DNA of 64,000 nucleotides from Mycobacteriales bacterium (GTDB lineage Bacteria > Actinomycetota > Actinomycetes > JAFAQI01). The position numbers and the translations under genes were made by a program. The stretch spans positions 27,379-91,378 of the forward strand of contig DASZPL010000135.1 in the NCBI GenBank assembly GCA_035550315.1, given 5' to 3'. Under the pieces are notes generated by a model, which was not told where the DNA came from, made no database searches, and worked only from the letters and a program-made list of their open reading frames with translations. Below are positions 44,209 to 64,000 of this stretch, piece by piece; position 1 is the stretch's first letter; the number at the start of each line of letters is the position of its first letter.

Positions 44209-45312
44209 ATGACGGCGGAGCGCGACGTCGACCGCAGTTCGCTCGACGCCCGCCGCTGGGTCGACGAGGCGATCCGGCGGGTAGAAGCCGACGCCAACCG
44301 CTCGGCCGACACCCACCTGGTGCCGCTGCCGCTACCGGCGTTCGGCGAGATCGACGTCTACCTCAAGGACGAGTCGACCCACCCGACCGGGTCGTTGAAG
44401 CATCGGCTCGCCCGATCCCTGTTTCTCTACGGTCTGTGCAACGGCTGGATCCGCGAAGGTACGACGATCGTCGAGGCGTCCTCGGGATCGACCGCGATCA
44501 GCGAGGCGTACTTCGCGCGCATGCTAGACCTGCCGTTCATCGCCGTGATGCCGCGCGAGACGAGTGCCGAGAAGATCGCGCTGATCGAACGGGAAGGCGG
44601 CAAGTGCCATCTGGTTGACGACGCGACCGCTGTCTACGTCGAGGCGGCCCGACTGGCCGAGCAGACCGGCGGTCACTACCTCGACCAGTTCACCTACGCC
44701 GAGCGCGCGACCGACTGGCGCGGCAACAACAACATCGCCGAGTCGATCTTCGAGCAGCTGCAGCTCGAGCGGTTTCCGATCCCGCGTTGGATCGTGGTCG
44801 GCGCCGGCACGGGTGGCACCAGCGCCACCATCGGTCGCTACGTCAGGTACCGCCGGCACGCGACCGGACTCGTGGTCGTCGACCCGGAGCACTCCGCTTT
44901 CTTTCCGGGTTGGCACGACGATGACGGGTCGGCGACGACTGACTGCGGCTCGCGGATCGAAGGCATCGGGCGTCCCCGGGTCGAGCCAAGCTTCGTTCCG
45001 GGCGTGGTCGACCGGATGATCACCGTGCCCGACGCCGCGTCGATCGCAACCGTCCGTGTCCTCGAGGCGATGCTGGGACGGCGGGTCGGGGCTTCCACCG
45101 GCACGAACGTGTGGGGTGCGCTCCGCCTCGCGAGCGAGATGCACGTTCGGGGCGAGCCCGGCAGCATCGTCACCCTCCTCTGCGACGGCGGCGACCGCTA
45201 TGCGCACAGCTACTTCGACGACGACTGGCTGGCGGCGCACGGCCTGGACCTGTCGCCATACTTGGACCGGCTCCAGCAGACGCTGACGACGGGACGTTGG
45301 ACGGCGGGCTGA
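44209..45312 (+). CDS. PLP-dependent enzyme of the cysteine synthase / tryptophan synthase beta superfamily
   Basis: [16 protein letters not shown] carries the PLP lysine, and [12 protein letters not shown] is the phosphate-binding loop. The substrate cannot be inferred. Confidence 0.7.
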
Positions 45313-49621: not shown

Positions 49622-50337
49622 CCCGGCCACGCACGTTGTCTTTGTTCGCCGCAGTCGCCGCCGTCGTCGCGACTGCGGCGGCATGCGGCGGCTCGGGAAG
49701 TTCGTCCGGTGACAGTCAGAGCGCCGGATCCGGCAAGCCGCTCGTCGGGACGTTTCGACTGACACCCGGCAAGTGCACATCTGGCGCGCCGACCGGCTCC
49801 TACTTCCGCATGATCGAGCCGCATGGCACGCTCGCGCATGGCAAGTTCTTCGACAATCCCGACTCCACCTGCAAGGACAAGTCCTTCACGGTGCAGGCGC
49901 CCGGCGCGGATGGTGGGCTGGAGACCGGTCGGTACCAGCCGAGCCCGGCGACTCCCTTCGACGCAACCGGCAACTCCCGCGCCCACCTCATCACGAAGCC
50001 CGGCACGTTCACTGCGATCCGGTTCGGCATCGAGACGAACCGAGTGGATCCGCAAACCCATCACGCGGTTCCACCGCCGCGGATCGTTGACACCGCCGGC
50101 AAGCTCTCCGGCCAGGTGGAGGCCTGGTCGGCATCCTGGAACAACCAGTACTTCAACCAGGGCTCGCCGAAGCCGGACGGCAGTCGACCGGGACTCACAT
50201 TGCCGGTGCGAGGGACATACGACGCGCGCACGGGCGCGTTCGTCCTGACCTGGGCAAGTCAGGTCGTCGGTGGCCCGTTCAACGGCTTCACCGGCTACTG
50301 GCACCTGCAGGGCCACTTCGTTGCGGCGCGGCGCTAG
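49618..50337 (+). CDS. 2-Cys domain lipoprotein, paralogue 2
   Basis: ATGA overlap with the upstream stop. Lipobox ATAAAC. The domain aligns by eye along its whole length with paralogue 1 (GTFRLTPGKC..GSYFRM..C.., WNNQYFNQG.PKPDG, GTYDA.TGAF.L.W.SQVVGGPF..FTG.WHL.GHF). Confidence 0.75.
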   Translation: MTRPRTLSLFAAVAAVVATAAACGGSGSSSGDSQSAGSGKPLVGTFRLTPGKCTSGAPTGSYFRMIEPHGTLAHGKFFDNPDSTCKDKSFTVQAPGADGGLETGRYQPSPATPFDATGNSRAHLITKPGTFTAIRFGIETNRVDPQTHHAVPPPRIVDTAGKLSGQVEAWSASWNNQYFNQGSPKPDGSRPGLTLPVRGTYDARTGAFVLTWASQVVGGPFNGFTGYWHLQGHFVAARR

Positions 50338-50820
50338 ATGCGCATCTCAGCAAAGTCCGACAACGCGGTGCGCGCGATGGCGGAGCTGGCCGCCGCGGGT
50401 GACGGCGCCCTGGTCCGGGCCGAGGACATCGCGGCGGCCCAGGGGATTCCTGTGACCTTCCTTCTCGGCATCCTCCGCGAGTTGCGGGTTGCGCACCTCG
50501 TGCGGAGCTATCGGGGTCGCGGCGCCGGCTTCGCGCTCGCGCGCTCACCTGAGGCGATCACCATCGCCGATGTCATTCGCGCCGTCGATGGCCCGCTGGC
50601 AAATGTCCGCGGCCTGAGTCCGGACGAGCTGACCTACCGCGGGTCCGCCGCGCCACTACGTGAGGTGTGGTTTGCCGTCCGCGGAAGCCTGCGCGAGGTG
50701 CTCGAGCAGGTCACGCTCGCCGACCTCGTGCGCACCGAGCTGCCCGCGAACGTGAGGTTCTGGGCAGCGCGTTACACCGCCGAGCAGGTGGAACGCGGAT
50801 GGACCGCGAGCGTTTCCTGA
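50338..50820 (+). CDS. Rrf2 family transcriptional regulator (no cysteines)
   Basis: Carries MRISAKSDNAVRAMAELA......V.AEDIA.AQGIP..FL..IL.EL..A.LV.S.RG..GG..LAR....I...DVIRAVDGPL. The ATG follows the preceding TAG directly. Confidence 0.85.
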   Translation: MRISAKSDNAVRAMAELAAAGDGALVRAEDIAAAQGIPVTFLLGILRELRVAHLVRSYRGRGAGFALARSPEAITIADVIRAVDGPLANVRGLSPDELTYRGSAAPLREVWFAVRGSLREVLEQVTLADLVRTELPANVRFWAARYTAEQVERGWTASVS

Positions 50821-51719: not shown

Positions 51720-53126
51720 TCAAGTTAATGTAGTGATTCCGAGGCGGACGGCGGTGTCGAAGGGTTGGTTGACCAGCACGACGCCAGCTTCGCGGGCGTT
51801 GAGCAGCGACGCGGCAACCGCGGCGCGGAAGCCGCCGCCGCAGTACACCCAGATGCCGCGCGCTGACGGCGGTACACCGGAACGCCGGTCGCTGTCGACG
51901 ATCTCGGCCAGGTCGGGCAATGCGAAGTGACGTGCCCCGACCACGTGACCGGCCTGGTACTCCTGCTCGCTGCGGACGTCGAGCACGATCGGTTCGGCTC
52001 GCTGTCGCTCCTCCGCCAAGTCGGCGAACCGCCGGACCGAGTAACTACGGAGTCGCTCACGGTCACCGCCCGACCACTGGTCGGGAGACCCGAGCATCAT
52101 TCCGAGCGGTCGGTCGATCCCGACTTGAACGAGTTGACGCTGCGCGGTCGCAACCTCGCTGTCGCTGCCGAGCAGCACGACTCCGGCGCCGGCCGGGAGG
52201 ATCCACGGCAGGTACGCGACGAGCGGACCGCTCGCCTCGATATTGATCGAGCCGGCAAGATGCTGGCCGGCAAAAGCCACCCGATCGCGCACATCGACCA
52301 GCCAGTGGCCGGCGGCAGCCAATGCGATGAGGTCTTTCGGTTCAAGCGGCTTCGGCGGATCGAGGACGACCGGTGTCGGGCCGATTGCGTTGTGGAGCGG
52401 GAGGCGCCCGTAGTGGCGGGGGATCGGTCCGTAGCCTGCGATGAGCGCGTCGACAAAGTCTTGCTCCGGCGTCAGCAGGGCCGGGTTGACGAGGCACTCT
52501 TCGGCCAGCGTTGCTGACGCGGTCTCGCCGGCGACATCGGCCGAGCAGAACGACCCGAAGCCGTGGGTCGGCAGCAGCAACGTGTCGGGGGGCAGCTCGT
52601 CGACGAGCCGGCGCACGGACCGCCACTGGGCGTGTGCCAGCTCGACGGTCTGCGCTGAACCGTAGAGGTCCGTCCGTCCGACCGAGCCGTTCAGCAATGC
52701 CCCACCCGTGCAAACGGCGACGGGCCCGTTGGCGGCTTCGATGACCAGGGCAACATGGTGCGGGGTGTGACCGGGCGTCGCGAGCGCACGCAGTGCGAGG
52801 CCGCCGGCGGCGTAGGTCACGCCTTCCGTGGCCGGCGTGAAGCCGAATCTCGGGTCCGGGTCACCCGGCGGCACGACATAGGTGGCGCGGTGGCGGCGCG
52901 ACAGCTCCAGCCCGCCGGACACGTAGTCCGCATGCCGATGGGTTTCGGCGACCAACTCGATCCGGGCATCGTGGCGTTCGGCGACCGCTTCGATCCGGTC
53001 GATGTCCCGTGGAGGATCGACCACCAATGCGGTCGATCCCTCCGTGATGACATAGGTCCGGTTGCCGAGGCACGGATTCGCCAATGACTCAATCTGCACG
53101 GGAGCAGCCTTTCCGCCGGCAGGCAA
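51720..53126 (-). CDS. persulfide dioxygenase (MBL fold) fused to tandem rhodanese domains (CstB-like)
   Basis: MBL motif ETHRHADYVSGG, then ATPGHTPHH and LPTHG. Two rhodanese modules follow, the last with the active-site loop CGGGFRAA. GTG 53099 is an alternative start. Confidence 0.75.
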   Translation of the reverse strand: MPAGGKAAPVQIESLANPCLGNRTYVITEGSTALVVDPPRDIDRIEAVAERHDARIELVAETHRHADYVSGGLELSRRHRATYVVPPGDPDPRFGFTPATEGVTYAAGGLALRALATPGHTPHHVALVIEAANGPVAVCTGGALLNGSVGRTDLYGSAQTVELAHAQWRSVRRLVDELPPDTLLLPTHGFGSFCSADVAGETASATLAEECLVNPALLTPEQDFVDALIAGYGPIPRHYGRLPLHNAIGPTPVVLDPPKPLEPKDLIALAAAGHWLVDVRDRVAFAGQHLAGSINIEASGPLVAYLPWILPAGAGVVLLGSDSEVATAQRQLVQVGIDRPLGMMLGSPDQWSGGDRERLRSYSVRRFADLAEERQRAEPIVLDVRSEQEYQAGHVVGARHFALPDLAEIVDSDRRSGVPPSARGIWVYCGGGFRAAVAASLLNAREAGVVLVNQPFDTAVRLGITTLT

Positions 53127-55888: not shown

Positions 55889-55915
55889 CTAAACGACCTA
55901 AGTTGAGTGGTTTAG
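55889..55915. promoter_or_regulatory. CTAAAC-N15-GTTTAG inverted repeat upstream of the SBP56-like gene
   Basis: Perfect 6-bp arms at 55889-55894 and 55910-55915 sit inside an AT-rich patch (55878-55925), ~35 nt upstream of the ATG at 55951. Confidence 0.5.
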
Positions 55916-55950
55916 TGCATATAGGCCATACGCCACCAGGAGGATGGGGA

Positions 55951-58374
55951 ATGCGGCTCGGCTCACGGACCAGGCGGAGCGTCATCATCGCGGCGGCCCT
56001 CGCGGTCGTCGCCTCGACTGGCACTGCCGTTGCAGCGTCGACGCAGCAATCAACTGGCGCCAACAGTTTGCTGCCGACCGTCACGAGGACGATCTCGAAA
56101 ATCTCGACCGGCGTGGGCAAGGTGACGGAGAGCATCAACTACACCGTCAACGCCGACCCGCAGTCGCGTGCGGACGCAACCGACAGCTATGGCAATCCGC
56201 TTGAGGGCCTGTCCCTGAAGGGTCTGCCCAGCCTGCCGGGCCTGGGCGCGAAGCTGCCGCTCGAGGACGGCAACAACCCCGACCTCGACAACGAGCCGTC
56301 CGGTGGTGCCTCGTGCCCGCCCGCCGGCAAGGGCCACGAGTACATGATCGTGTGGGCCGGCAAGATGAACGCGGCCGACCTGACCGGCAGCGACGTTGTC
56401 GATCTGCTGAACGGCGGCGAGGTCAACCCGGAGGGCCTCGCGTCTGAGATTCCCATCGAGTTCGGTGAGACCGGCTCGGACATGATGGTCACGATCGACG
56501 CCGAGCCCGGGTGTAACACCTACGGCAAGGTGGTCAACGTCTCGGTGATCACTGGTCCCGACGGCATCGAGAACGAGCCGCACCACATGCAGTACACCTG
56601 GTATCCGAACCAGACGGTCTGGGCCGGCGGTCTGTTCACATCACGGCTGTTCACGTTCGATCTGTCGAACCTGCCGCAGGTGACGCTGCAGAAGATCGAC
56701 GAGCCGTGGGCCACGCCGAGCGGGAGTATTTGGGACGCCTTTGCGACCCTGCCTAACGGCGACGCCTACGGCACGTTGATGGGCGGCCCGCTCTACGCGT
56801 ACGGCACGACGCCCGGCGCCGTCGTCGAGATTGCCGGCAACGACCACCCGGGCGCCAAGCCCGGCGACATCCTCGGTGAGTGGCCCGCCGACGCGCCGAA
56901 CAAGCTCGTCGACGGACTGAACTCGAACGGATCGGCCGCGGGCGCACTGCTGCAATCGCTCGGCCAGACCGTGACCAACGTCCCGAATCTCATCAACAGC
57001 ACCAACTGCCCGCCGCCGAACTCGAACGACGGCCGGAAGCGGGCCGGATGCGACACCGGCCTGAACCTCAAGACCGGGTCTGGCATCACCAAGTGCCCCG
57101 ATTTCGGCAGCTGCGCCAACCCGCACGGTGTCCAAGTGCGCGCCGACCTGAAGACGTTGGTCACCTCGGACTACGCCGAGCCGGCGCAGATCATCGAAGA
57201 CCCGATCAAGCCGTCGAGCGCGAACTACTTCCGGCGGACGGTCCGAGTCTGGAGCTTGGGCAACCAAGGGTGCTCCGGCAACAAGACGCCGGGCGCCTCG
57301 CTGAATCACCCCGAGATCTGTGCGGTCGACGTCATGCCACAGGGACCGCGTGACGACGCCAACCCGGCGCACGCGGAAAACATGGGAATCATGGAGAACG
57401 GCGCTACCTGGGACTACCCCTTGCCCGACGGCCGGATCCCGAAGGGGTGGTTCTCGGAAAGCATGTGTGGCGGCGCGGTCTTCTACACGCCGGACATCAC
57501 CGACACCAAGGACCACCCCTGGCACGAGGTCTTCGACTCGACCGCCGCCGCGAACGCGCTGCATAACGGCGGCGCCGGACGCAACGCACCCGGCGGCAAC
57601 AACGGCAAGACCCCGCTGAATGAGCCAGCCGGCTGCGACGGCGCCGCATGGGACGTCGTGAGTCCGGACAACCGGTTCCTCGGTCACGCCGTGAACGGCC
57701 GGTTTGTCCTGCAGGACGACTTCGACGACGCCGGCTCGCCGAAGATGGTCTACACCCTCAGCATCACGAAGCTGCTCGAAGCCGGCGACAGCTACAAGTG
57801 CGACCTCTCGGACAACGTCCGTGCGCTTGCCGACCCGACCCTCGGGGGCAAGGACTGCCCGACCGTCGTCGGTGTGGTCCCGATCAACGACCCGACCTCC
57901 GGCGGTCCGCACTGGGCCGAGTTCGACAACTTCCGGCTCGCCGCGGTCAAGATCAAGGATCCGAAGACCGGAAAGATTGTCACCGACTATCACGCCCCGA
58001 CCCGGATCGCGGAAGCCAACTACTTCGTCGCGCGCACCGGCGTCGACGGCAACCACACGGTCTGCATGATCAACATGAACCCGAAGACCGGCTCGCTGTC
58101 GCTGGACACCAGCTTCATCGACGAGACCGAGGGCACGCCCTGTGTCCAGTTCAACCGTCGTGACTGGCCGGACCCGAACATCAAGGGGTTCTACAAGCCG
58201 CACTCGATGCTGTTCGTCGAGAACGGCGCGCCCGCTACGGGCTATACGCCGTACGGCCACGACTACGGCCCGAACTGCCAGTTCGGCAAGGTCGTCGACG
58301 GCGAATGCCATGGCTACTGGGGCGAGCCGATCGACATGGGAGCCGATACCGCCGGCCTCCCGTACGAGGAGTGA
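55951..58374 (+). CDS. expanded selenium-binding-protein (SBP56)/methanethiol-oxidase-like secreted protein
   Basis: ATG 55951 with a GGAGGA SD. The signal peptide has a twin arginine (SRTRRSVIIAAALAV). Colinear by-eye matches to SBP56: MMVTIDAEPGCNTYGKVV..NEPHHMQYTW (cf. LATVDVDPKSPQY..VIH..ELHHSGWN), SRLFTFDL, HGVQVRADLKTLVTSDYAEP, SPDNRFL, GGPHW. At 807 aa it is far longer than the ~470 aa I recall for the family. Confidence 0.6.
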   Translation: MRLGSRTRRSVIIAAALAVVASTGTAVAASTQQSTGANSLLPTVTRTISKISTGVGKVTESINYTVNADPQSRADATDSYGNPLEGLSLKGLPSLPGLGAKLPLEDGNNPDLDNEPSGGASCPPAGKGHEYMIVWAGKMNAADLTGSDVVDLLNGGEVNPEGLASEIPIEFGETGSDMMVTIDAEPGCNTYGKVVNVSVITGPDGIENEPHHMQYTWYPNQTVWAGGLFTSRLFTFDLSNLPQVTLQKIDEPWATPSGSIWDAFATLPNGDAYGTLMGGPLYAYGTTPGAVVEIAGNDHPGAKPGDILGEWPADAPNKLVDGLNSNGSAAGALLQSLGQTVTNVPNLINSTNCPPPNSNDGRKRAGCDTGLNLKTGSGITKCPDFGSCANPHGVQVRADLKTLVTSDYAEPAQIIEDPIKPSSANYFRRTVRVWSLGNQGCSGNKTPGASLNHPEICAVDVMPQGPRDDANPAHAENMGIMENGATWDYPLPDGRIPKGWFSESMCGGAVFYTPDITDTKDHPWHEVFDSTAAANALHNGGAGRNAPGGNNGKTPLNEPAGCDGAAWDVVSPDNRFLGHAVNGRFVLQDDFDDAGSPKMVYTLSITKLLEAGDSYKCDLSDNVRALADPTLGGKDCPTVVGVVPINDPTSGGPHWAEFDNFRLAAVKIKDPKTGKIVTDYHAPTRIAEANYFVARTGVDGNHTVCMINMNPKTGSLSLDTSFIDETEGTPCVQFNRRDWPDPNIKGFYKPHSMLFVENGAPATGYTPYGHDYGPNCQFGKVVDGECHGYWGEPIDMGADTAGLPYEE

Positions 58375-61178
58375 CGGCGGGCCGCCCGCCGCGCCGGAGC
58401 CTGCGATTGCTCCGGCGCGGCGGAACGGTCGCAGTGCTGGCCGGGGGGCTTGCCGTCGGCATCGCGAGTCCGGCGTCTGCGCATCCCTACCTGCTGCGCA
58501 GCGATCCGGTAGCAGGTGCCGTGCTGCCTGCTACCCCCAGCGAGATCCACATCTTCTACACCGAGGGTCTCGACCGGCCGTACTGCTCGGTCACGATCGT
58601 GACGCCTGCCGGTCAGGACATCACCACTCGACAGGTCGCTGCCGGACAGCCGACCGAGCTCGCCGTCGCGCCCACCCGGTCGCTGACCGCGACCGGCACG
58701 TACGCGGTTGAGTGGACGGCGGTCGGCGATGACGGCCACACCGTCATCGGCAACTTCGGTTTCAGCGTGGGGCATCCGACGAGCAACTCGGCGGTTGGGT
58801 CAACGGTTGGCACGACGACCGGCAGCGCAAGCGGTCAAGCCGGCCTGCAGCGACTGCTGCGGACCGTGCAGCCGATCGCCACTGTCATCTTCGCGGGATT
58901 CTTGTTACTCGCCGGCGCCATAGCCGCTGCTCGGCGCCGGGCCGTGCGCGCTCGTGCCATCAGTTTCGCGGTGCACTGCGGCGTCGTGCTTGCGTTGTGC
59001 GGCGCGGCCGTGGCCGATGGCGGATGGACCGCATTTGCCGGCTCCGAGCTCGGGCATCGGCTTCTCGTCGCGCTCGGACTCAGCCTGTTGGCCGTCGGCG
59101 TGGTTGTCGATCGGGGCGCCCTGGCCGCCGGGCGAGCACCGGCCGGCTGGCGGCGCTACGCCGGCCCGGCTCTCGCTGCTGGCCTGCTCGTCGTCCTCGC
59201 CATGTCCGGGCATGCCGACAGTCAGCCCGAGAGCCGGCGGGCACTGGCGATCGTGGTCTATTCGGTGCATCTCGTCGCAGTGAGCGTCTGGATCGGAGCG
59301 CTGGTTGCGGTGCTCCTGCGGCTGCGACCCGGACGGGACATTGCGCTGACCGACTCATCGGTGCGGCGGTTGCGCGGAGTCGTCGTGGTCTCGCTCCTAG
59401 CCGTGCTGGGAACCGGGCTTGCGACGACCGACTGGGGACTGCGGTCGCTGTCCGATGTGCTGCACACGACGTACGGCGCGCTTGCCATCACCAAGCTGTC
59501 GCTGTTCGGCGTCATCGTCGTTCTCGGTGGCGCCGCGGCCTGGTCCCGGACGCGTGGCCATCGCCGTCGGGTTGGCTCGATGTTGTTTGCCGCAGAGGGA
59601 ACGGTTGCCGTCGCGACGTTGGTGGTGGCCGGAGCCCTCGGCCAGATTGCGCAGCCGCTCGATCAGCCCTACGCCTCGCAGGCCTACGCCAGCGCCGCCG
59701 GGCTGCCGGTCGCCGTTGCTGCTGACGGGTCCGATTCGCTCGTTGTCGGGGCATTGGCACCCGGGATCGTCGGTGACAACACCCTCGTCGTCGAGGTTGG
59801 AGACGCCGACGAGGATGACTTTCTGAGCCCGGCGCCGGACGTGCGCTCCGTTCGTGCGACGTTGAGCTGTGGTTGCGGAGTAGCTGATCGCGACGTACGG
59901 CTGCAGCCGACCGGCGGTGGTGCCGAGTGGACCGGCGACGTGGATCTGCCGGCGGCCGCATCGTGGTTGGTCACGGCCCACGTGCGACGGTCGAACGGCT
60001 CGCCGGTCACGGTGCGGCTGCCGGAGCAGGTCGACCGGCCTGACCTGCCCGACCAGGTGGTAGTCGGAGTGCCGACGTCGTTGTCGGGGCGCACGGGCGA
60101 GACCTGCCGGGACGAGACCCTCGGCCTCCAGGTCGCGCTGGCCGACGTGAACTCGACGGCCGCCGATCACGGCGCGCTCGTCCGGGTGGTGGCGGTCGAT
60201 CTGCACGACGGCGTTGCCTCGGCGATCGCCCGGCTGCGGCGGCTTGGCGCGGCCGTCTTGGCCATGCCATGCGGGAGTCAGCAGCAGCTCAGTCGCATCG
60301 AGCGCGGCGCGGATGCGGCGGGCCTGCCAGTGGTGACCGGCGCGGCGACCACCGCGACCGATGCCGCTACCTGGTCGATGCAACCGGACTGGCGCTCGGA
60401 GGGAGCCGCAATCGGTCAGCAGGCCGTTCGGCAAGGGGGCCGCGTCGTGACGGCCGTCGTCGGTCGCACCGCAGTCGACCGCATGGAGGTCGCCGGCTTG
60501 CGCAGCGCGTTGGCGGACACCTCGGTGCGGCTGCGGACGAGCGTGCTGCCCGATCGGCCGGTGCGCTGGGTCCGGTCGCTCGAGCAGACTCGCACCGACC
60601 TGGTCGCGGTCCTGGCCGACCGCGAGGAAGCGCTGCCGCTGACCCACGCCTTCTCGAAGGTCGTCGCCGACGCGGGATGGCTGCCCTCGCACGGAATCGT
60701 GGCGTCCAGCCAGTTGATGAGCACCGACTTCATCAACGCCGCGGGGGACATCACCCGACTCGGCGCGATCGAGTTCGCGAGTGACATCAACCCATTCGAC
60801 CCGGTCTCGCAGTACTACGCCGAGCGGTTGCGGGCGCTCGAGCCCGGCTTGCGTCCCAGCTTTGACGGGCTGCACGGCTACGAAGGAGGCCTTGTGATCA
60901 GCTCCGCCCTACGCGACGGAGGCGGCCGTCCGTCGGCAGCGCAGCTGACCGGGCTGCTCGGCCGACGCTTCACGGACTTCGCGGTCGGCAGTTACCGCGT
61001 CGGGTGGCGTCCGACCGGCGGCACCTCGACATCGATCGCCTTCTTCCGGTCGACGTACATCAACCCGATGGCGCTGCCGGCCGATACGCCGGGTGGCGCC
61101 TCCTCGCTCGCTCACGAGGGCACGTTCCTCGACACCGGCGGGTTCGAGCAGGTCGCGCCGTTCCGGACGATCTCATGA
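58371..61178 (+). CDS. CopC-CopD-YtkA-like-periplasmic-binding-protein (type 1) fusion
   Basis: GTGA overlap with the upstream stop. Signal peptide ASA|HPYLLRSDP, with a CopC domain ending DDGHTVIGNFGFSV. A multi-TM CopD-like region follows, then an Ig-like segment (GDNTLVVEV...WTGDVDL...WLVTAHV), then a ~370-aa LivJ/PBP1-like C-terminal domain. Confidence 0.65.
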   Translation: MTAGRPPRRSLRLLRRGGTVAVLAGGLAVGIASPASAHPYLLRSDPVAGAVLPATPSEIHIFYTEGLDRPYCSVTIVTPAGQDITTRQVAAGQPTELAVAPTRSLTATGTYAVEWTAVGDDGHTVIGNFGFSVGHPTSNSAVGSTVGTTTGSASGQAGLQRLLRTVQPIATVIFAGFLLLAGAIAAARRRAVRARAISFAVHCGVVLALCGAAVADGGWTAFAGSELGHRLLVALGLSLLAVGVVVDRGALAAGRAPAGWRRYAGPALAAGLLVVLAMSGHADSQPESRRALAIVVYSVHLVAVSVWIGALVAVLLRLRPGRDIALTDSSVRRLRGVVVVSLLAVLGTGLATTDWGLRSLSDVLHTTYGALAITKLSLFGVIVVLGGAAAWSRTRGHRRRVGSMLFAAEGTVAVATLVVAGALGQIAQPLDQPYASQAYASAAGLPVAVAADGSDSLVVGALAPGIVGDNTLVVEVGDADEDDFLSPAPDVRSVRATLSCGCGVADRDVRLQPTGGGAEWTGDVDLPAAASWLVTAHVRRSNGSPVTVRLPEQVDRPDLPDQVVVGVPTSLSGRTGETCRDETLGLQVALADVNSTAADHGALVRVVAVDLHDGVASAIARLRRLGAAVLAMPCGSQQQLSRIERGADAAGLPVVTGAATTATDAATWSMQPDWRSEGAAIGQQAVRQGGRVVTAVVGRTAVDRMEVAGLRSALADTSVRLRTSVLPDRPVRWVRSLEQTRTDLVAVLADREEALPLTHAFSKVVADAGWLPSHGIVASSQLMSTDFINAAGDITRLGAIEFASDINPFDPVSQYYAERLRALEPGLRPSFDGLHGYEGGLVISSALRDGGGRPSAAQLTGLLGRRFTDFAVGSYRVGWRPTGGTSTSIAFFRSTYINPMALPADTPGGASSLAHEGTFLDTGGFEQVAPFRTIS

Positions 61179-61882
61179 CAGGTCGCAGGCTCCGACGGCC
61201 CGCTGATGCGGCCTTGACTGCGGTCTTGCTCTCGGCACTCGCGCTCGGCCTGACCGGCTGCGGCGGGGGGAGCGCCGATAGCTCCGGCGGCGTGTCGTCG
61301 GCAGCGAGCCCGACCCCGATTAGCTCGCTCCGCGAATCCGGCGACACGCCGCCGGTCCCGCCCGGCTGCACGAGTGCGGCGTTGCCCGCGGTCTATCGGG
61401 AGGACGGTCGGCACAGCGGCGCCTTGTCGGCGACTGCCTACAGCTCATCCGCCGACGTCCAGGCAGCGCTGCTCTACGACCAGTACCAATCCGGTCTGCG
61501 AGCCGTGTTCACCAGGACGGCGCCGGCGCCCCGCACTCGGATCACCGGCGTTGTCAGCTGTGTCGCCATGCACTTTCCGACGACCGAGCAAGCCGCCCGT
61601 TTCTTCTCGTCGTACCGGTATCTGCGCAAACAAGCGGGTCGGCTCGCCCGGCGGTTGCCGATCGGGGCGTCGCTCGGAAGTGCGACGCGGTCGGCGGCGT
61701 ACCTCGAGCGACGGCAGTCGTTTCGCGGCTACCACATCGCGTCGACCGACGTCGCCGAGGTTGCGGCGCAATCCGGCAGCACGTTGTGGATCGCGTCGGT
61801 GGCGGCGCGACAACCTTCGGTCAGCCTCGCCAGGTCCCTGCTCGTTTCGATGCTGCGTGCGGACGCAAGAGGTGCCTCGTGA
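61175..61882 (+). CDS. lipoprotein, unknown function
   Basis: ATGA overlap with the upstream stop. Lipobox LGLTGC. 235 aa, no motif recognised. Confidence 0.6.
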   Translation: MTGRRLRRPADAALTAVLLSALALGLTGCGGGSADSSGGVSSAASPTPISSLRESGDTPPVPPGCTSAALPAVYREDGRHSGALSATAYSSSADVQAALLYDQYQSGLRAVFTRTAPAPRTRITGVVSCVAMHFPTTEQAARFFSSYRYLRKQAGRLARRLPIGASLGSATRSAAYLERRQSFRGYHIASTDVAEVAAQSGSTLWIASVAARQPSVSLARSLLVSMLRADARGAS

Positions 61883-62529
61883 CCGCGCGTAGCCGATGGG
61901 CGGCTGCCCTGCTCGTGGTGAGCATTGCCACCGCGACCGGATGCCACTCGCGCACGGTCACGGATGCCGGCATTGAGCGAACGCCGACCGGTACGACGAG
62001 TGCGGCAACTGCGCCCCCCGGTTCGGCAGCTCCGGGTCGGGGGAGGGCGGCGTACACCGCGCGACAGCTCGTCGACGACGGCTTGCCATCCAAGATTGGC
62101 CCGGGAGCCCTGACAAAGCCACAGGTCAAGCAGCTGATGCAGTACTTCGAGAACAAGGTGGCGCACGCCTACGCGACGGGCCGGAGCGATTCGCTGACGC
62201 ACTATCTCGCCGGCCCGATGCTCAGCGGCAACCGAGCGACGATCCAGCTGCTGGCGGCGAAGCACAAGCGCAACGTCTTCCACATCGATGTCGTGGCCGT
62301 GCACTTGCAGGCCAACGAAGCAACGCGCCTGGTTTTCGCTATGACCGGCGACATGACGTCGAACTACTTCGTTGACACCGCGACCGGTCGGGTGCTCGAC
62401 CACGGCCTGCCTGGACCGTCGCAGGTCAAGTTCCTGATCTTCCTCGACCAGAATCCCGCCACCCGCACGTGGTACTGGACCGGCGAGCAGTCGCAGGCCG
62501 CTGCGGACAACGCCACTGGGAGCGGGTGA
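61879..62529 (+). CDS. lipoprotein, unknown function
   Basis: GTGA overlap with the upstream stop. Lipobox ATATGC. 216 aa, no recognisable catalytic motif. Confidence 0.6.
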   Translation: MTARSRWAAALLVVSIATATGCHSRTVTDAGIERTPTGTTSAATAPPGSAAPGRGRAAYTARQLVDDGLPSKIGPGALTKPQVKQLMQYFENKVAHAYATGRSDSLTHYLAGPMLSGNRATIQLLAAKHKRNVFHIDVVAVHLQANEATRLVFAMTGDMTSNYFVDTATGRVLDHGLPGPSQVKFLIFLDQNPATRTWYWTGEQSQAAADNATGSG

Positions 62530-62531
62530 CG

Positions 62532-63500
62532 ATGCGTGGCAGCGCCGTTCGGTTCGTCGCCGCCGGGGTGTTGGCGGCGAGCCTCCTGCTGGTTGTCGGA
62601 TCCGTCGCGCCGGCAGCCGCCGGCTCACCGCCGGCGGCTCAGCAGTTGCGCGGGACCTTCCGGCTGGAGCGCGCGTCGTGCACCCGCGGCCACCCGTCGG
62701 GCAGCTACGTCACGGTGACGTACGGCACCCGATCGATCGCGAACCCGCAGTCCGGCTGCGACCGGGGGGTCTACACGTTGTTGCAACCTGGCCGCCGTGG
62801 TCTCTCGACCGAGCGGTTCAGCCCGCTCGACGACCTGACCTTCGACGGCGGTGGCGACCCGCACGGCGGCGGCATCGCCCGGACGGTCGGGTTCCGCGGC
62901 CACCGGCTCTCGTTGGTCACGTCCCCGCGGGACCTTCAGGCGGCCCCTACCGGACCAGCCGTGTTTGCCCCGCCGACCATCTATCTCATCGGCCATCGGC
63001 TGGTCGGTGACGTCCGGTCGGTGCAGGCGCTGTACGACGGACGGCCCGGCTCCTCCTGTGTGACCGCCGCTGGGGCCGGCTGCTGGCTGGTCGGGGCCGA
63101 GCGGGCGACGGGCAGCTTCAACCCGACGACGCGCCGGTTCTCGTTGCAGTGGTTCAGCGGCCAGTCCTTCGTCGGCTCGTCGGCCGGCACGGTGGTCCAC
63201 CTCGCCGGGCGCTTTTACGGTGTCGGTCGGCCGGTGCCCCAGGGTCGGACCGTCGATCTCGGGACGCAGAGCTTTGCCGCCGGATCGCCCCCGCCGCGCT
63301 CGGCCGTGGTCACGTCCGGCAAGCCGCGGCGCCACCGGGCGGCTCCTCGCCACCGGCGGACCGCGGGCCCGGCCACGGCCGCCGGTCGCGACGACACCGC
63401 CGGCCGGCCGGGATGGCCCGAGTCCGCGGCCGAGGTGCTGCTCGCACTCAACGGTGTCGCCTCGGTTGGCGTGCTGGCGCGACGAAGGAGGACCCGGTGA
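62532..63500 (+). CDS. secreted 2-Cys domain protein, paralogue 3 (divergent), with basic/Pro-rich tail and possible C-terminal anchor
   Basis: Signal peptide present. LRGTFRLERASCTRGHPSGSYVTV....PQSGCDRGVYTLLQPG and ...SLQWFSG...VHLAGRF align with paralogues 1 and 2. GTG 62526 (GTGA overlap) is an alternative start. Confidence 0.6.
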   Translation: MRGSAVRFVAAGVLAASLLLVVGSVAPAAAGSPPAAQQLRGTFRLERASCTRGHPSGSYVTVTYGTRSIANPQSGCDRGVYTLLQPGRRGLSTERFSPLDDLTFDGGGDPHGGGIARTVGFRGHRLSLVTSPRDLQAAPTGPAVFAPPTIYLIGHRLVGDVRSVQALYDGRPGSSCVTAAGAGCWLVGAERATGSFNPTTRRFSLQWFSGQSFVGSSAGTVVHLAGRFYGVGRPVPQGRTVDLGTQSFAAGSPPPRSAVVTSGKPRRHRAAPRHRRTAGPATAAGRDDTAGRPGWPESAAEVLLALNGVASVGVLARRRRTR

Positions 63501-64000
63501 TCGCCGTTCGGCGCGCGCAGATCACGGTGGTGGTTGCCGCGGTGCTCGCCGTGCTGCTCGCCGGCTGCAGTGGTGGGCCGCAGCAGCCGGCGGCGACCCG
63601 ACTGCAGGGCATCCTTCGCCTCGACGCCGGCCACTGCGGTGCGCGGCACCGGGCCCCGACCGGTAGCTACCTGATCGTGATCTCGGCCGCGACCGGCAAG
63701 GCGGTGCCAAACCCCGCGAGCGGCTGTCGCAATCACGACTACACGCTGCTGCAGCCGGGCACCGAGGGCGGGATCCGGACCGGGAGCTTTCAACGACAGC
63801 CAGCCCCGGCGTTCGACAGCCACCGCAACGCACGCGCCGGGCTGATCATCCGGCCCACTCGGTTCGGCCGTTACCGGTTCGGGCTCGCGACCAGCTCTCG
63901 TGACGAGCAGGATGCTCCCGCCGGTGCGCCGGCGTACCCCCCACCGACCGCCCTGGTGCGCGGGAACGCACTCTCGGTCGATCTGCGTTCGCTCGTGTTG
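63497..64000 (+). CDS. 2-Cys domain lipoprotein, paralogue 4; 3' end runs off the window
   Basis: Absent from the ORF track because it is open-ended. GTGA overlap with the upstream stop. Lipobox LLAGC. LQGILRLDAGHCGARHRAPTGSYLIV...PASGCRNHDYTLLQPGTEGGIRTGSF..PAPAFDS.RNARA matches the family. Confidence 0.6.
   Translation, partial: MIAVRRAQITVVVAAVLAVLLAGCSGGPQQPAATRLQGILRLDAGHCGARHRAPTGSYLIVISAATGKAVPNPASGCRNHDYTLLQPGTEGGIRTGSFQRQPAPAFDSHRNARAGLIIRPTRFGRYRFGLATSSRDEQDAPAGAPAYPPPTALVRGNALSVDLRSLVL

Follow-up and report, generated by a model that had tools for sequence, protein, structure and literature searches.

A long, secreted and very divergent SBP56-type beta-propeller protein with a putatively remodelled metal site, encoded next to a CopC-CopD fusion in a Mycobacteriales bacterium

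The stretch of DNA analysed here comprises 64,000 nucleotides of a Mycobacteriales bacterium (GenBank assembly GCA_035550315.1, contig DASZPL010000135.1, positions 27,379 to 91,378) and is referred to as the window. It has a G+C content of about 70% and contains on its plus strand a gene for an 807-residue protein that is a genuine but very divergent seven-bladed beta-propeller of the SBP56 fold. The protein carries a secretion signal, its conserved residues deviate in a characteristic manner from those of the methanethiol oxidases MtoX and SELENBP1, and its gene is accompanied by copper- and sulfur-related genes. The features of the protein and of the locus are compiled in Table 1.

The open reading frame (ORF) extends from position 55903 to 58374. 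The start codon was assigned to the ATG at 55951 because the motif AGGAGG is located 7 nt upstream of it and because the signal peptide that follows is conserved among the relatives; the motif lies within an AT-rich intergenic stretch. For the same reasons, a TTG start at 55903 and the automated start at V55 (P0001, 753 residues), which drops the leader, were rejected. The homologs P0003, P0004, P0005, P0008, P0009, and P0014 likewise appear to be N-terminally truncated or mis-started in the database. A promoter scan upstream of the gene revealed no sigma-70-like site and the lone terminator-like match was at chance level; both results are uninformative for a high-G+C actinobacterium. The coordinates and the length of 807 residues given by an earlier interpretation made without database searches (the sequence-only reading) were exact.

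Table 1. Features of the SBP56-like protein, its gene and the neighbouring genes (coordinates refer to the window)
Feature	Coordinates	Strand	Basis or correspondence
Rrf2-family transcriptional regulator	50338..50820	+	Pfam 8e-33
CstB-like persulfide dioxygenase-rhodanese (metallo-beta-lactamase (MBL) + rhodanese domains)	51720..53126	-	Pfam; PDB 3TP9 7e-48, 3R2U 2.5e-28, ETHE1, BpPRF
NAD_binding_9 flavoprotein (FAD/NAD(P)-binding) with C-terminal region of about 430 residues	53062..55809	+	Pfam 1.8e-41
Shine-Dalgarno motif AGGAGG, 7 nt before ATG	55938..55943	+	read directly from the sequence
Coding sequence, 807-residue SBP56-like protein	55951..58374	+	ORF list; stop codon TGA 58372-58374
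Signal peptide, residues 1 to about 28-30	55951..56040	+	sequence features: n-region MRLGSRTRR, h-region SVIIAAALAVVASTGTAVA, probable cleavage between AVA and AS
N-terminal beta-hairpin, residues 42-67, TVTRTISKISTGVGKVTESINYTVN	56074..56151	+	strands E43-52 and E58-67; predicted local distance difference test (pLDDT) 85-92
Pro/Gly/Asn-rich linker, residues 68-125	56152..56325	+	predicted disordered, pLDDT <50 for residues 86-118; insertion map
SBP56-type beta-propeller core, residues 126-757	56326..58221	+	Foldseek 2ECE, hhalign to MtoX, insertion map
H211-H212 (ENEPHH)	56581..56586	+	human H73/H74, Ruegeria MtoX H88/H89, Hyphomicrobium H89/H90; (nearly) invariant column, kept
D262, invariant Asp in place of the third His	56734..56736	+	human H137, Ruegeria H141, Hyphomicrobium H140; hhalign and MAFFT agree
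Largest internal insertion, residues 318-383, Cys-containing low-confidence loop	56902..57099	+	pLDDT <50 for residues 343-381; insertion map
H392-G-V-Q395 (ANPHGxQ motif)	57124..57135	+	H392 at MtoX Tyr202; Q395 at the catalytic Asp (Ruegeria D205, human D189)
E482 (IME), catalytic Glu	57394..57396	+	human E252, MtoX E269; invariant in the family, kept
H654 (GGPHW), family-specific invariant His	57910..57912	+	Asn in MtoX; alignment
H751 (KPHSMLF), C-terminal His	58201..58203	+	MtoX H424, human H457; invariant column in all groups, kept
C-terminal extension, residues 758-807, with pair Cys776/Cys786 and conserved tail GEPIDMGADTAGLPYEE	58222..58371	+	long forms only
CopC-CopD-Peripla_BP_6 fusion, co-operonic, downstream	58371..61178	+	Pfam CopC 6e-16, NCBIfam CopC/CopD
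Three unannotated ORFs (61004-61882, 61786-62529, 62469-63500)	61004..63500	+	tblastn 29-55% identity, same order after CopC-CopD in loci L001, L005, L006, L007

The relationship to SBP56 is hardly visible at the level of single sequences. For the window protein, Pfam gave no family at E<=0.01 and no match to SBP56 (PF05694, gathering score 34 bits) even at E<=10, and phmmer detected no match among the PDB sequences. Of 39 family members, 22 matched Pfam SBP56 weakly (best E 2.3e-7). A search of the PDB with the family profile yielded the Sulfolobus tokodaii protein ST0059 (PDB 2ECE) as a marginal match (E 0.036), ranked under a spurious aspartic-proteinase match. The structural comparison was more informative. 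An AlphaFold2 model of the window protein, calculated from an alignment of 120 sequences, had a predicted template modelling score (pTM) of 0.85 and a mean pLDDT of 80.6. When this model was compared with the PDB by means of Foldseek, the top match was again 2ECE (E 5.1e-14, probability 1.00, 13% identity). The template modelling (TM) score is 0.70 when normalised to the target and 0.41 when normalised to the query, about 40% of which is extra material. Membership in a different beta-propeller family was rejected, because all further matches were generic propellers (LRP6, Elp2, DFPase, pyrroloquinoline quinone (PQQ) dehydrogenases, and lactonases) with E-values of at least 3e-6. The sequence block DF-AVID...S-TY-K-V...NE-HH is common to 2ECE and the family of the window protein.

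Profile-profile comparison points in the same direction. The experimentally validated mtoX of Ruegeria pomeroyi, located on the megaplasmid (SPOA0269), and collected orthologs served as MtoX reference. By means of hhalign, the family profile was aligned with the MtoX orthologs over 296 columns with a probability of 97.1% (E 7.1e-11). A greedier run covered all of MtoX and ran in the canonical order from EYxxVWAG to KPHSMLF. In a HMMER scan of 1.84 billion representatives, the family profile matched 673 proteins at E<=1e-3 and 120 at E<=1e-30. Bridging proteins with a length of 436-470 residues match this profile at E 1e-25 to 1e-66 and also score 38-59 bits with the Pfam SBP56 model, i.e. above its gathering score. 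Structural similarity, the alignment of profiles, and the transitive link via the bridging proteins together establish the homology to SBP56. The family as such is small and falls outside the present Pfam model. The sequence-only reading had postulated an SBP56-type propeller with the conserved blocks in canonical order; both statements hold.

The window protein is nevertheless not an ortholog of MtoX. With the NCBIfam equivalog model NF052453 it reaches 37.8 bits as compared to a cutoff of 650 (E 7.7e-10), and the match is confined to residues 175-258, which align with positions 35-114 of the 408 positions of the model. Moreover, the third His, the catalytic Asp, and the synteny of MtoX are all missing, as detailed below.

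Altogether, 195 relatives of the window protein were detectable. The closest ones are about 16 long forms of 740-863 residues, which are 58-81% identical over the full length. About 16 relatives of approximately 690 residues are about 55% identical, and many relatives of approximately 600 residues are 35-47% identical. The latter group includes proteins of cultured organisms, namely Carbonactinospora thermoautotrophica, Pseudonocardia dioxanivorans, Amycolatopsis, Kibdelosporangium, and Actinokineospora. Most members originate from actinobacterial genomes and metagenomes. Nearly all of them bear the database name "hypothetical protein", and a few members of approximately 600 residues are named "selenium-binding family protein" by NCBI. 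Over a core of 630 residues, about 27 positions are invariant and about 110 are nearly invariant. Literature searches combining SBP or methanethiol oxidase with Actinobacteria or CopC gave no account of a long actinobacterial or CopC-linked SBP56 branch, and a survey of SBP evolution (PMC10277263) does not describe such a long actinobacterial branch. The accessible part of a conservation paper from 2026 (PMC13603461) compares only RdMTO and SELENBP1. In the literature searched, this mostly unannotated and mainly actinobacterial branch with its extensions and insertions is thus a distinct and undescribed subfamily, as had been supposed from the sequence. The novelty lies in a natural variant of a debated copper site and in a new maturation partner; neither the fold nor the principle is new.

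Compared to MtoX (436 residues) and human SELENBP1 (472 residues), the length excess of the window protein is real. According to an insertion map, 314 residues in about 14 segments have no counterpart in these proteins, and about 175 of them are specific to the long forms if compared to the members of approximately 600 residues. An N-terminal extension is present; however, it comprises about 95 residues between the predicted cleavage site (approximately residues 28-30) and the first SBP56 block EYMIVWAG (residues 129-137) and is thus shorter than the approximately 130 residues claimed by the sequence-only reading. The N-terminal hairpin occurs family-wide, including the relatives of approximately 600 residues, and is missing from MtoX and SELENBP1; its residue N63 is nearly invariant. 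The linker that follows is mostly confined to the sub-branch of approximately 800 residues. The several internal insertions that had been noted were likewise found in the map: besides the largest one, the core contains helical insertions (143-174 and 611-636), loops (438-449, 467-480, and 531-559), and a hairpin (661-681). The extra residues are surface decorations on the propeller, held by paired cysteines. At the C-terminus, the long forms and those of approximately 690 residues share a conserved acidic tail, GEPIDMGADTAGLPY(E/Q)E or G-EVD..-GG(F)PY-E, which is not found in the forms of approximately 600 residues. This tail might plug the active site or act as a signal for maturation or for interaction.

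In MtoX, four histidines are strictly conserved (Eyice et al., PMC5739008). In human SELENBP1, the residues H73, H74, H137, H140, D189, and E252 are each essential for methanethiol oxidase activity, and the exchange D189N alone abolishes it (Philipp et al., PMC10362175). The corresponding positions were determined by aligning the family and the bridging proteins jointly with MtoX and human SELENBP1 by means of MAFFT. The sequence used for the human protein reproduces all 14 residue identities of Table 1 of PMC10362175. The His pair, the catalytic Glu, and the C-terminal His are kept in the window protein. The third His is an Asp (D262); in the greedier hhalign alignment it fell on L281, again not a His. 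The catalytic Asp is replaced by Q395, and at least 90% of the family contain a Gln at this position. Human H140 corresponds to F144 of MtoX and A265 of the window protein, and is not conserved even in MtoX.

The exchanges are strictly correlated. In 184 aligned sequences, positions 262 and 392 contain an Asp plus a His in 152 cases and a His plus a Tyr in 19 cases, and the mixed combinations Asp plus Tyr or His plus His never occur. If the eight positions are written as a signature, 113 family sequences display HHDHQEHH versus HHHYDENH in MtoX. All signature residues are located at strand starts, in regions of the model with a pLDDT of at least 90. The metal site looks as if it had been rebuilt in a coordinated way, and one His ligand was possibly relocated to the adjacent blade. 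The sequence-only reading does not mention these exchanges, and resemblance to SBP56 should not be equated with methanethiol oxidase function.

The bridging proteins P0284, P0350, P0356, P0376, and P0384 (436-470 residues) share with the family the C-terminal blocks FN-R--WPHG and KPH/RPH as well as H654, and their leaders are all signal or lipoprotein-like. They differ from the window protein in having no N-terminal hairpin and hardly any of the insertions, and they pass the Pfam SBP56 threshold. The D262/H392 state of the family is also found in P0284 and in the longer proteins P0268 and P0278, whereas P0350 and P0356 retain the canonical His/Tyr state. P0376 and P0384, which are of canonical length (436-452 residues), have lost several ligands. 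Their signatures are HALTATSH and HGLSAASH; most putative ligands are gone, and judging from these residues the two proteins may be non-catalytic.

The leader of the window protein (MRLGSRTRRSVIIAAALAVVASTGTAVA, followed by AS) consists of a positively charged n-region, a hydrophobic core of 19-20 residues, and an AxA site, and is about 29 residues long. An equivalent leader is present in 97 of 120 family members. Anchoring as a lipoprotein or by a sortase was rejected, as the leader has no lipobox Cys and the C-terminus no LPXTG motif. The protein contains eight cysteine pairs that are conserved pair-wise; the cysteines 122/188, 441/457, 506/562, 617/636, 705/731, and 776/786 are gained or lost strictly in pairs. 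In 99% of the 105 members that start with Met, the number of cysteines in the mature part is even. The pairing indicates the formation of disulfides and hence folding outside the cytoplasm.

These findings bear on the route of export. The sequence-only reading had pointed to SRTRRSVII, a hydrophobic stretch, and AVAAS in the leader, all of which are present, and had regarded the leader as compatible with export of a folded, metallated protein by the twin-arginine translocation (Tat) system. The sequence T-R-R-S-V-I-I fits the core RRx-hydrophobic-hydrophobic, but not the full consensus S/T-R-R-x-F-L-K. A twin arginine precedes the h-region in 65 of the 97 family leaders, and the leaders of MtoX also tend to contain RR (consensus MxxRR in alignment A3; KRREFG in R. 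pomeroyi), which would be in favour of Tat. However, the RRx-hydrophobic-hydrophobic pattern is found in 39 of the 97 leaders, and the leaders of eight of the closest full-length relatives (P0002, P0006, P0007, P0011, P0013, P0015, P0016, and P0017) contain no RR. In genomes with a G+C content of about 70%, Arg replaces Lys in ordinary n-regions of the general secretory (Sec) pathway. Furthermore, the leader is short, its h-region is very hydrophobic (Kyte-Doolittle value 2.8), the eight conserved cysteine pairs imply that the protein folds oxidatively in the extracellular space, and the extramembrane CopC domain encoded by the neighbouring gene is available for copper loading after export. 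Export by Tat is thus unlikely. Sec export combined with external folding and copper loading would be the more economical reading of the leader and the cysteines.

The gene immediately downstream codes for a fusion of CopC, CopD, and a binding-protein-like part. It starts either with a GTG at 58371, which overlaps the TGA stop codon of the SBP56-like gene, or with a TTG at 58407 that is preceded by GGAG 7 nt upstream; a terminator scan detected no terminator between the two genes. Mature CopC is predicted to begin, after ASA, with HPYLL, i.e. with a His, and contains the sequence DDGH. A His at the start and DDGH are features of the Cu(II) site of the CopC family. The fusion proteins have a length of about 935-957 residues, and their C-terminal part, which resembles type-I periplasmic-binding proteins, gives weak matches to Peripla_BP_6/ANF_receptor. 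The arrangement recurs: a CopC-CopD-type gene follows the homolog in five of eight distinct related loci (L001, L006, L007, L010, and, as split genes, L005). In L008, the downstream gene encodes a 612-residue protein with a weak CopD match, and in the Kibdelosporangium and Carbonactinospora loci unannotated proteins of 548-590 residues are encoded at this position. In L001 (20506-21953) and L006 (19942-21431), the operon also includes, further downstream, a gene for a BNR/Sortilin-like propeller and is closed by the gene of a small cupredoxin; the window stops at 64000 and does not extend that far.

The last of the three unannotated ORFs downstream of the fusion gene (62469) and the C-terminal half of ORF 48937 (49639-50337, plus strand) look paralogous, and both contain GTFRL..C..G.P.GSY. 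ORF 48937 has a lipoprotein-like leader, AAACGG. Relatives are encoded in L010 as well, where they adjoin the SBP-like gene; no match to a Pfam family was obtained.

The hallmark of mtoX operons is the order mtoX - SCO1/senC - mauG (PMC5739008), which is also found on the R. pomeroyi megaplasmid. Neither the window nor the eight distinct related loci contain genes for SCO1/SenC or for a cytochrome-c-peroxidase/MauG.

Upstream of the SBP56-like gene, the window contains genes that may be linked to sulfur metabolism. The flavoprotein gene is adjacent; for the C-terminal region of about 430 residues of its product there was no match in Pfam or PDB. Homologs of the flavoprotein adjoin the SBP-like gene in L006, L008, and L001. 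The flavoprotein is fused to MBL and rhodanese domains in L001 and comprises only 401 residues in L006. Homologs of the MBL-rhodanese protein occur in L006 and L008, and a regulator that is 51% identical to the Rrf2 protein is encoded near the Carbonactinospora homolog (L002). Genes of the Sulf_transp family, or homologs of the MBL-rhodanese protein, the flavoprotein, or the Rrf2 regulator, recur near family members. A pyridoxal phosphate-dependent enzyme of the PALP family (cysteine synthase/cystathionine beta-synthase type) is encoded at 44209-45312 (plus strand), about 10 kb upstream, and another one at 4790-6001 of L009, near the Kibdelosporangium homolog. These genes may be coincidental or may tie the loci additionally to the metabolism of sulfur amino acids.

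A comparison with known systems illustrates what is shared and what is not. MtoX (Hyphomicrobium sp. VS; R. pomeroyi SPOA0269; NF052453; PF05694) has the same propeller fold and the same order of conserved blocks as the window protein. It is likewise extracytoplasmic due to an N-terminal signal peptide, and its gene is located directly upstream of a copper-handling gene. Both share the His pair of the NExHH motif, the Glu found in (L/M)E, and the His of the C-terminal xPH/xAH motif. The two proteins are only about 21% identical, and MtoX comprises 435 residues, whereas the window protein has 807 with about 314 inserted ones. In the window protein, the third His is changed to Asp and the catalytic Asp to Gln, and the invariant residues His392 and His654 are new. 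MtoX is proteobacterial and is partnered by SCO1/SenC and MauG, whereas the family of the window protein is mainly actinobacterial and is associated with CopC-CopD, in part with the additional binding-protein domain; the eight cysteine pairs are a feature of the window side. Human SELENBP1 and SEMO-1 from C. elegans, both copper-dependent thiol oxidases, are homologous propellers, and the window protein contains the equivalents of H73, H74, E252, and H457. SELENBP1 is cytosolic and, unlike the window protein, has no signal peptide. Its residues H137, H140, and D189, each of which is essential (PMC10362175), correspond to Asp, Ala, and Gln, and its CSSC and C-terminal Cys motifs are missing from the window protein. 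ST0059, the best structural match and the only SBP56 structure in the structure library searched, is cytoplasmic, unlike the secreted window protein. The cst operon of S. aureus (CstR-regulated CstA, CstB, and sulfide:quinone oxidoreductase) resembles the locus in that a CstB-like protein adjoins a flavoprotein and a regulator, and in that Sulf_transp genes occur in related loci. The regulator of the window is, however, of the Rrf2 type and not of the CsoR type, the flavoprotein belongs to NAD_binding_9, and the module of SBP56-like protein and CopC-CopD has no counterpart in cst.

On balance, we regard it as somewhat probable that the window protein belongs to a long, mainly actinobacterial branch of the SBP56 superfamily and acts as a secreted metalloenzyme that is stabilised by disulfides, is served by CopC-CopD, and carries out a copper-dependent oxidation of thiols or other sulfur compounds; copper, the substrate class, and the reaction are what we infer here. 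The protein would be exported unfolded, most likely by Sec, and its disulfides would form outside the cell. Copper would be delivered by the co-transcribed CopC-CopD-binding-protein fusion, in place of the SCO1/SenC of mtoX operons. The enzyme might then oxidise a small thiol or a reduced sulfur compound with O2 outside the cell, in a chemistry like that of methanethiol oxidase: R-CH2-SH + O2 + H2O -> R-CHO + H2S (or sulfane sulfur) + H2O2. In the cytoplasm, the neighbouring flavoprotein and the CstB-like persulfide dioxygenase-rhodanese could then process the resulting sulfide or persulfide, with the Rrf2 protein as their regulator. It is quite possible that, due to the remodelled site, the substrate or the mechanism differs from that of MtoX.

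Several observations weigh against this assignment. Two of the five catalytic residues that SELENBP1 and MtoX have in common are replaced (His by Asp and Asp by Gln), and methanethiol oxidase activity can therefore not be assumed; Asp and Gln are less typical as copper ligands. The residue mapping stems from alignments at 13-25% identity, and the clustering of the conserved residues into one site is putative, as it comes from sequence mapping. The sulfur genes are located in the vicinity without being direct neighbours in every case, and the flavoprotein does not belong to the recognised sulfide:quinone oxidoreductases. CopC-CopD fusions are usually taken to function in copper uptake, so that the partnership could mean something else, and MauG, a partner in mtoX operons, is lacking.

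The strongest competitor of a CopC-CopD-served enzyme with a site of its own is a functional methanethiol oxidase, isofunctional with MtoX and SELENBP1, in which surface decorations and neutral ligand swaps surround the same copper centre. The fold and the block order are those of MtoX; four residues of the site (the His pair, the Glu, and the C-terminal His) are unchanged; a gene of the copper chaperone type is adjacent as in mtoX operons; and NCBI names a few members as selenium-binding. The perfect co-variation of D262 plus H392 versus His plus Tyr also looks like the relocation of a His ligand to the neighbouring blade, rather than its loss. Against these arguments stand the low equivalog score (37.8 versus 650 bits), the missing Pfam SBP56 match, and the lack of SCO1/SenC and MauG in the window and in the eight related loci. 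The family has a Gln at the position where the exchange D189N alone kills the activity of SELENBP1 (PMC10362175). In addition, the extra His654 is invariant, as are many charged residues specific to the family, which suggests that the site is constructed differently. Isofunctionality is thus possible but doubtful.

It is less plausible that the SBP56 scaffold has acquired a different chemistry or metal, for example as a Ca-, Zn-, or Fe-dependent hydrolase or lyase, or as an oxidase of a non-sulfur substrate. Central-metal propellers (DFPase, lactonases, and the luciferin-regenerating enzyme) are among the weaker Foldseek matches, the exchanges His to Asp and Asp to Gln and the new His residues would be compatible with such a change, and the large insertions could build a new substrate pocket. 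However, the Foldseek E-value is eight orders of magnitude better for SBP56 than for the hydrolase propellers. Genes for CopC/CopD, cupredoxins, persulfide metabolism, and sulfur transport are moreover persistently linked to the family across distant branches, so that we consider a different chemistry improbable. Finally, a non-catalytic extracellular copper binder, which might act as a store, sensor, or scavenger in copper acquisition with CopC-CopD, would fit the downstream CopC/CopD-type genes with their general tie to copper uptake, the many conserved His residues, and the history of SBP56 proteins, which were first known only as ligand binders, but is highly improbable, because the about 27 invariant and 110 nearly invariant positions of the 630-residue core, including buried Arg, Asp, and Glu, are typical of an enzyme, the recurrent sulfur-oxidation neighbours would be left unexplained, and CopC already supplies copper binding.

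Within the preferred assignment as a copper-dependent sulfur-oxidising enzyme, a more far-reaching version can be put forward tentatively. The residues HH-D-H-Q-E-H-H might constitute a metal centre of a type that is new for the SBP56 scaffold, such as a copper site that is binuclear or has a different coordination, and that is loaded by the CopC-CopD-binding-protein fusion and serves an extracellular sulfur oxidation other than that of methanethiol. Possible substrates would be, for example, sulfide, polysulfide, or larger organic thiols in soil actinobacteria. If this is true, the protein would be an unrecognised entry point into a CstB-type persulfide pathway.

Methanethiol oxidase/SELENBP1 is a recently recognised copper enzyme whose metal site and mechanism are still debated. 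It is relevant to the global sulfur cycle (dimethylsulfoniopropionate, dimethyl sulfide, and methanethiol), and in humans to H2S signalling, halitosis, and cancer biomarkers. The copy of the PDB that was searched contained no structure of the active form of methanethiol oxidase/SELENBP1. A family that combines a co-varying catalytic rearrangement with a different copper-delivery partner is thus a comparative system for the copper-binding residues and for the scope of the scaffold. The poorly understood CopC-CopD fusions gain a testable client. Moreover, as the Pfam SBP56 model with its curated threshold does not pick up the branch, surveys of methanethiol oxidation that rely on this model would miss it.

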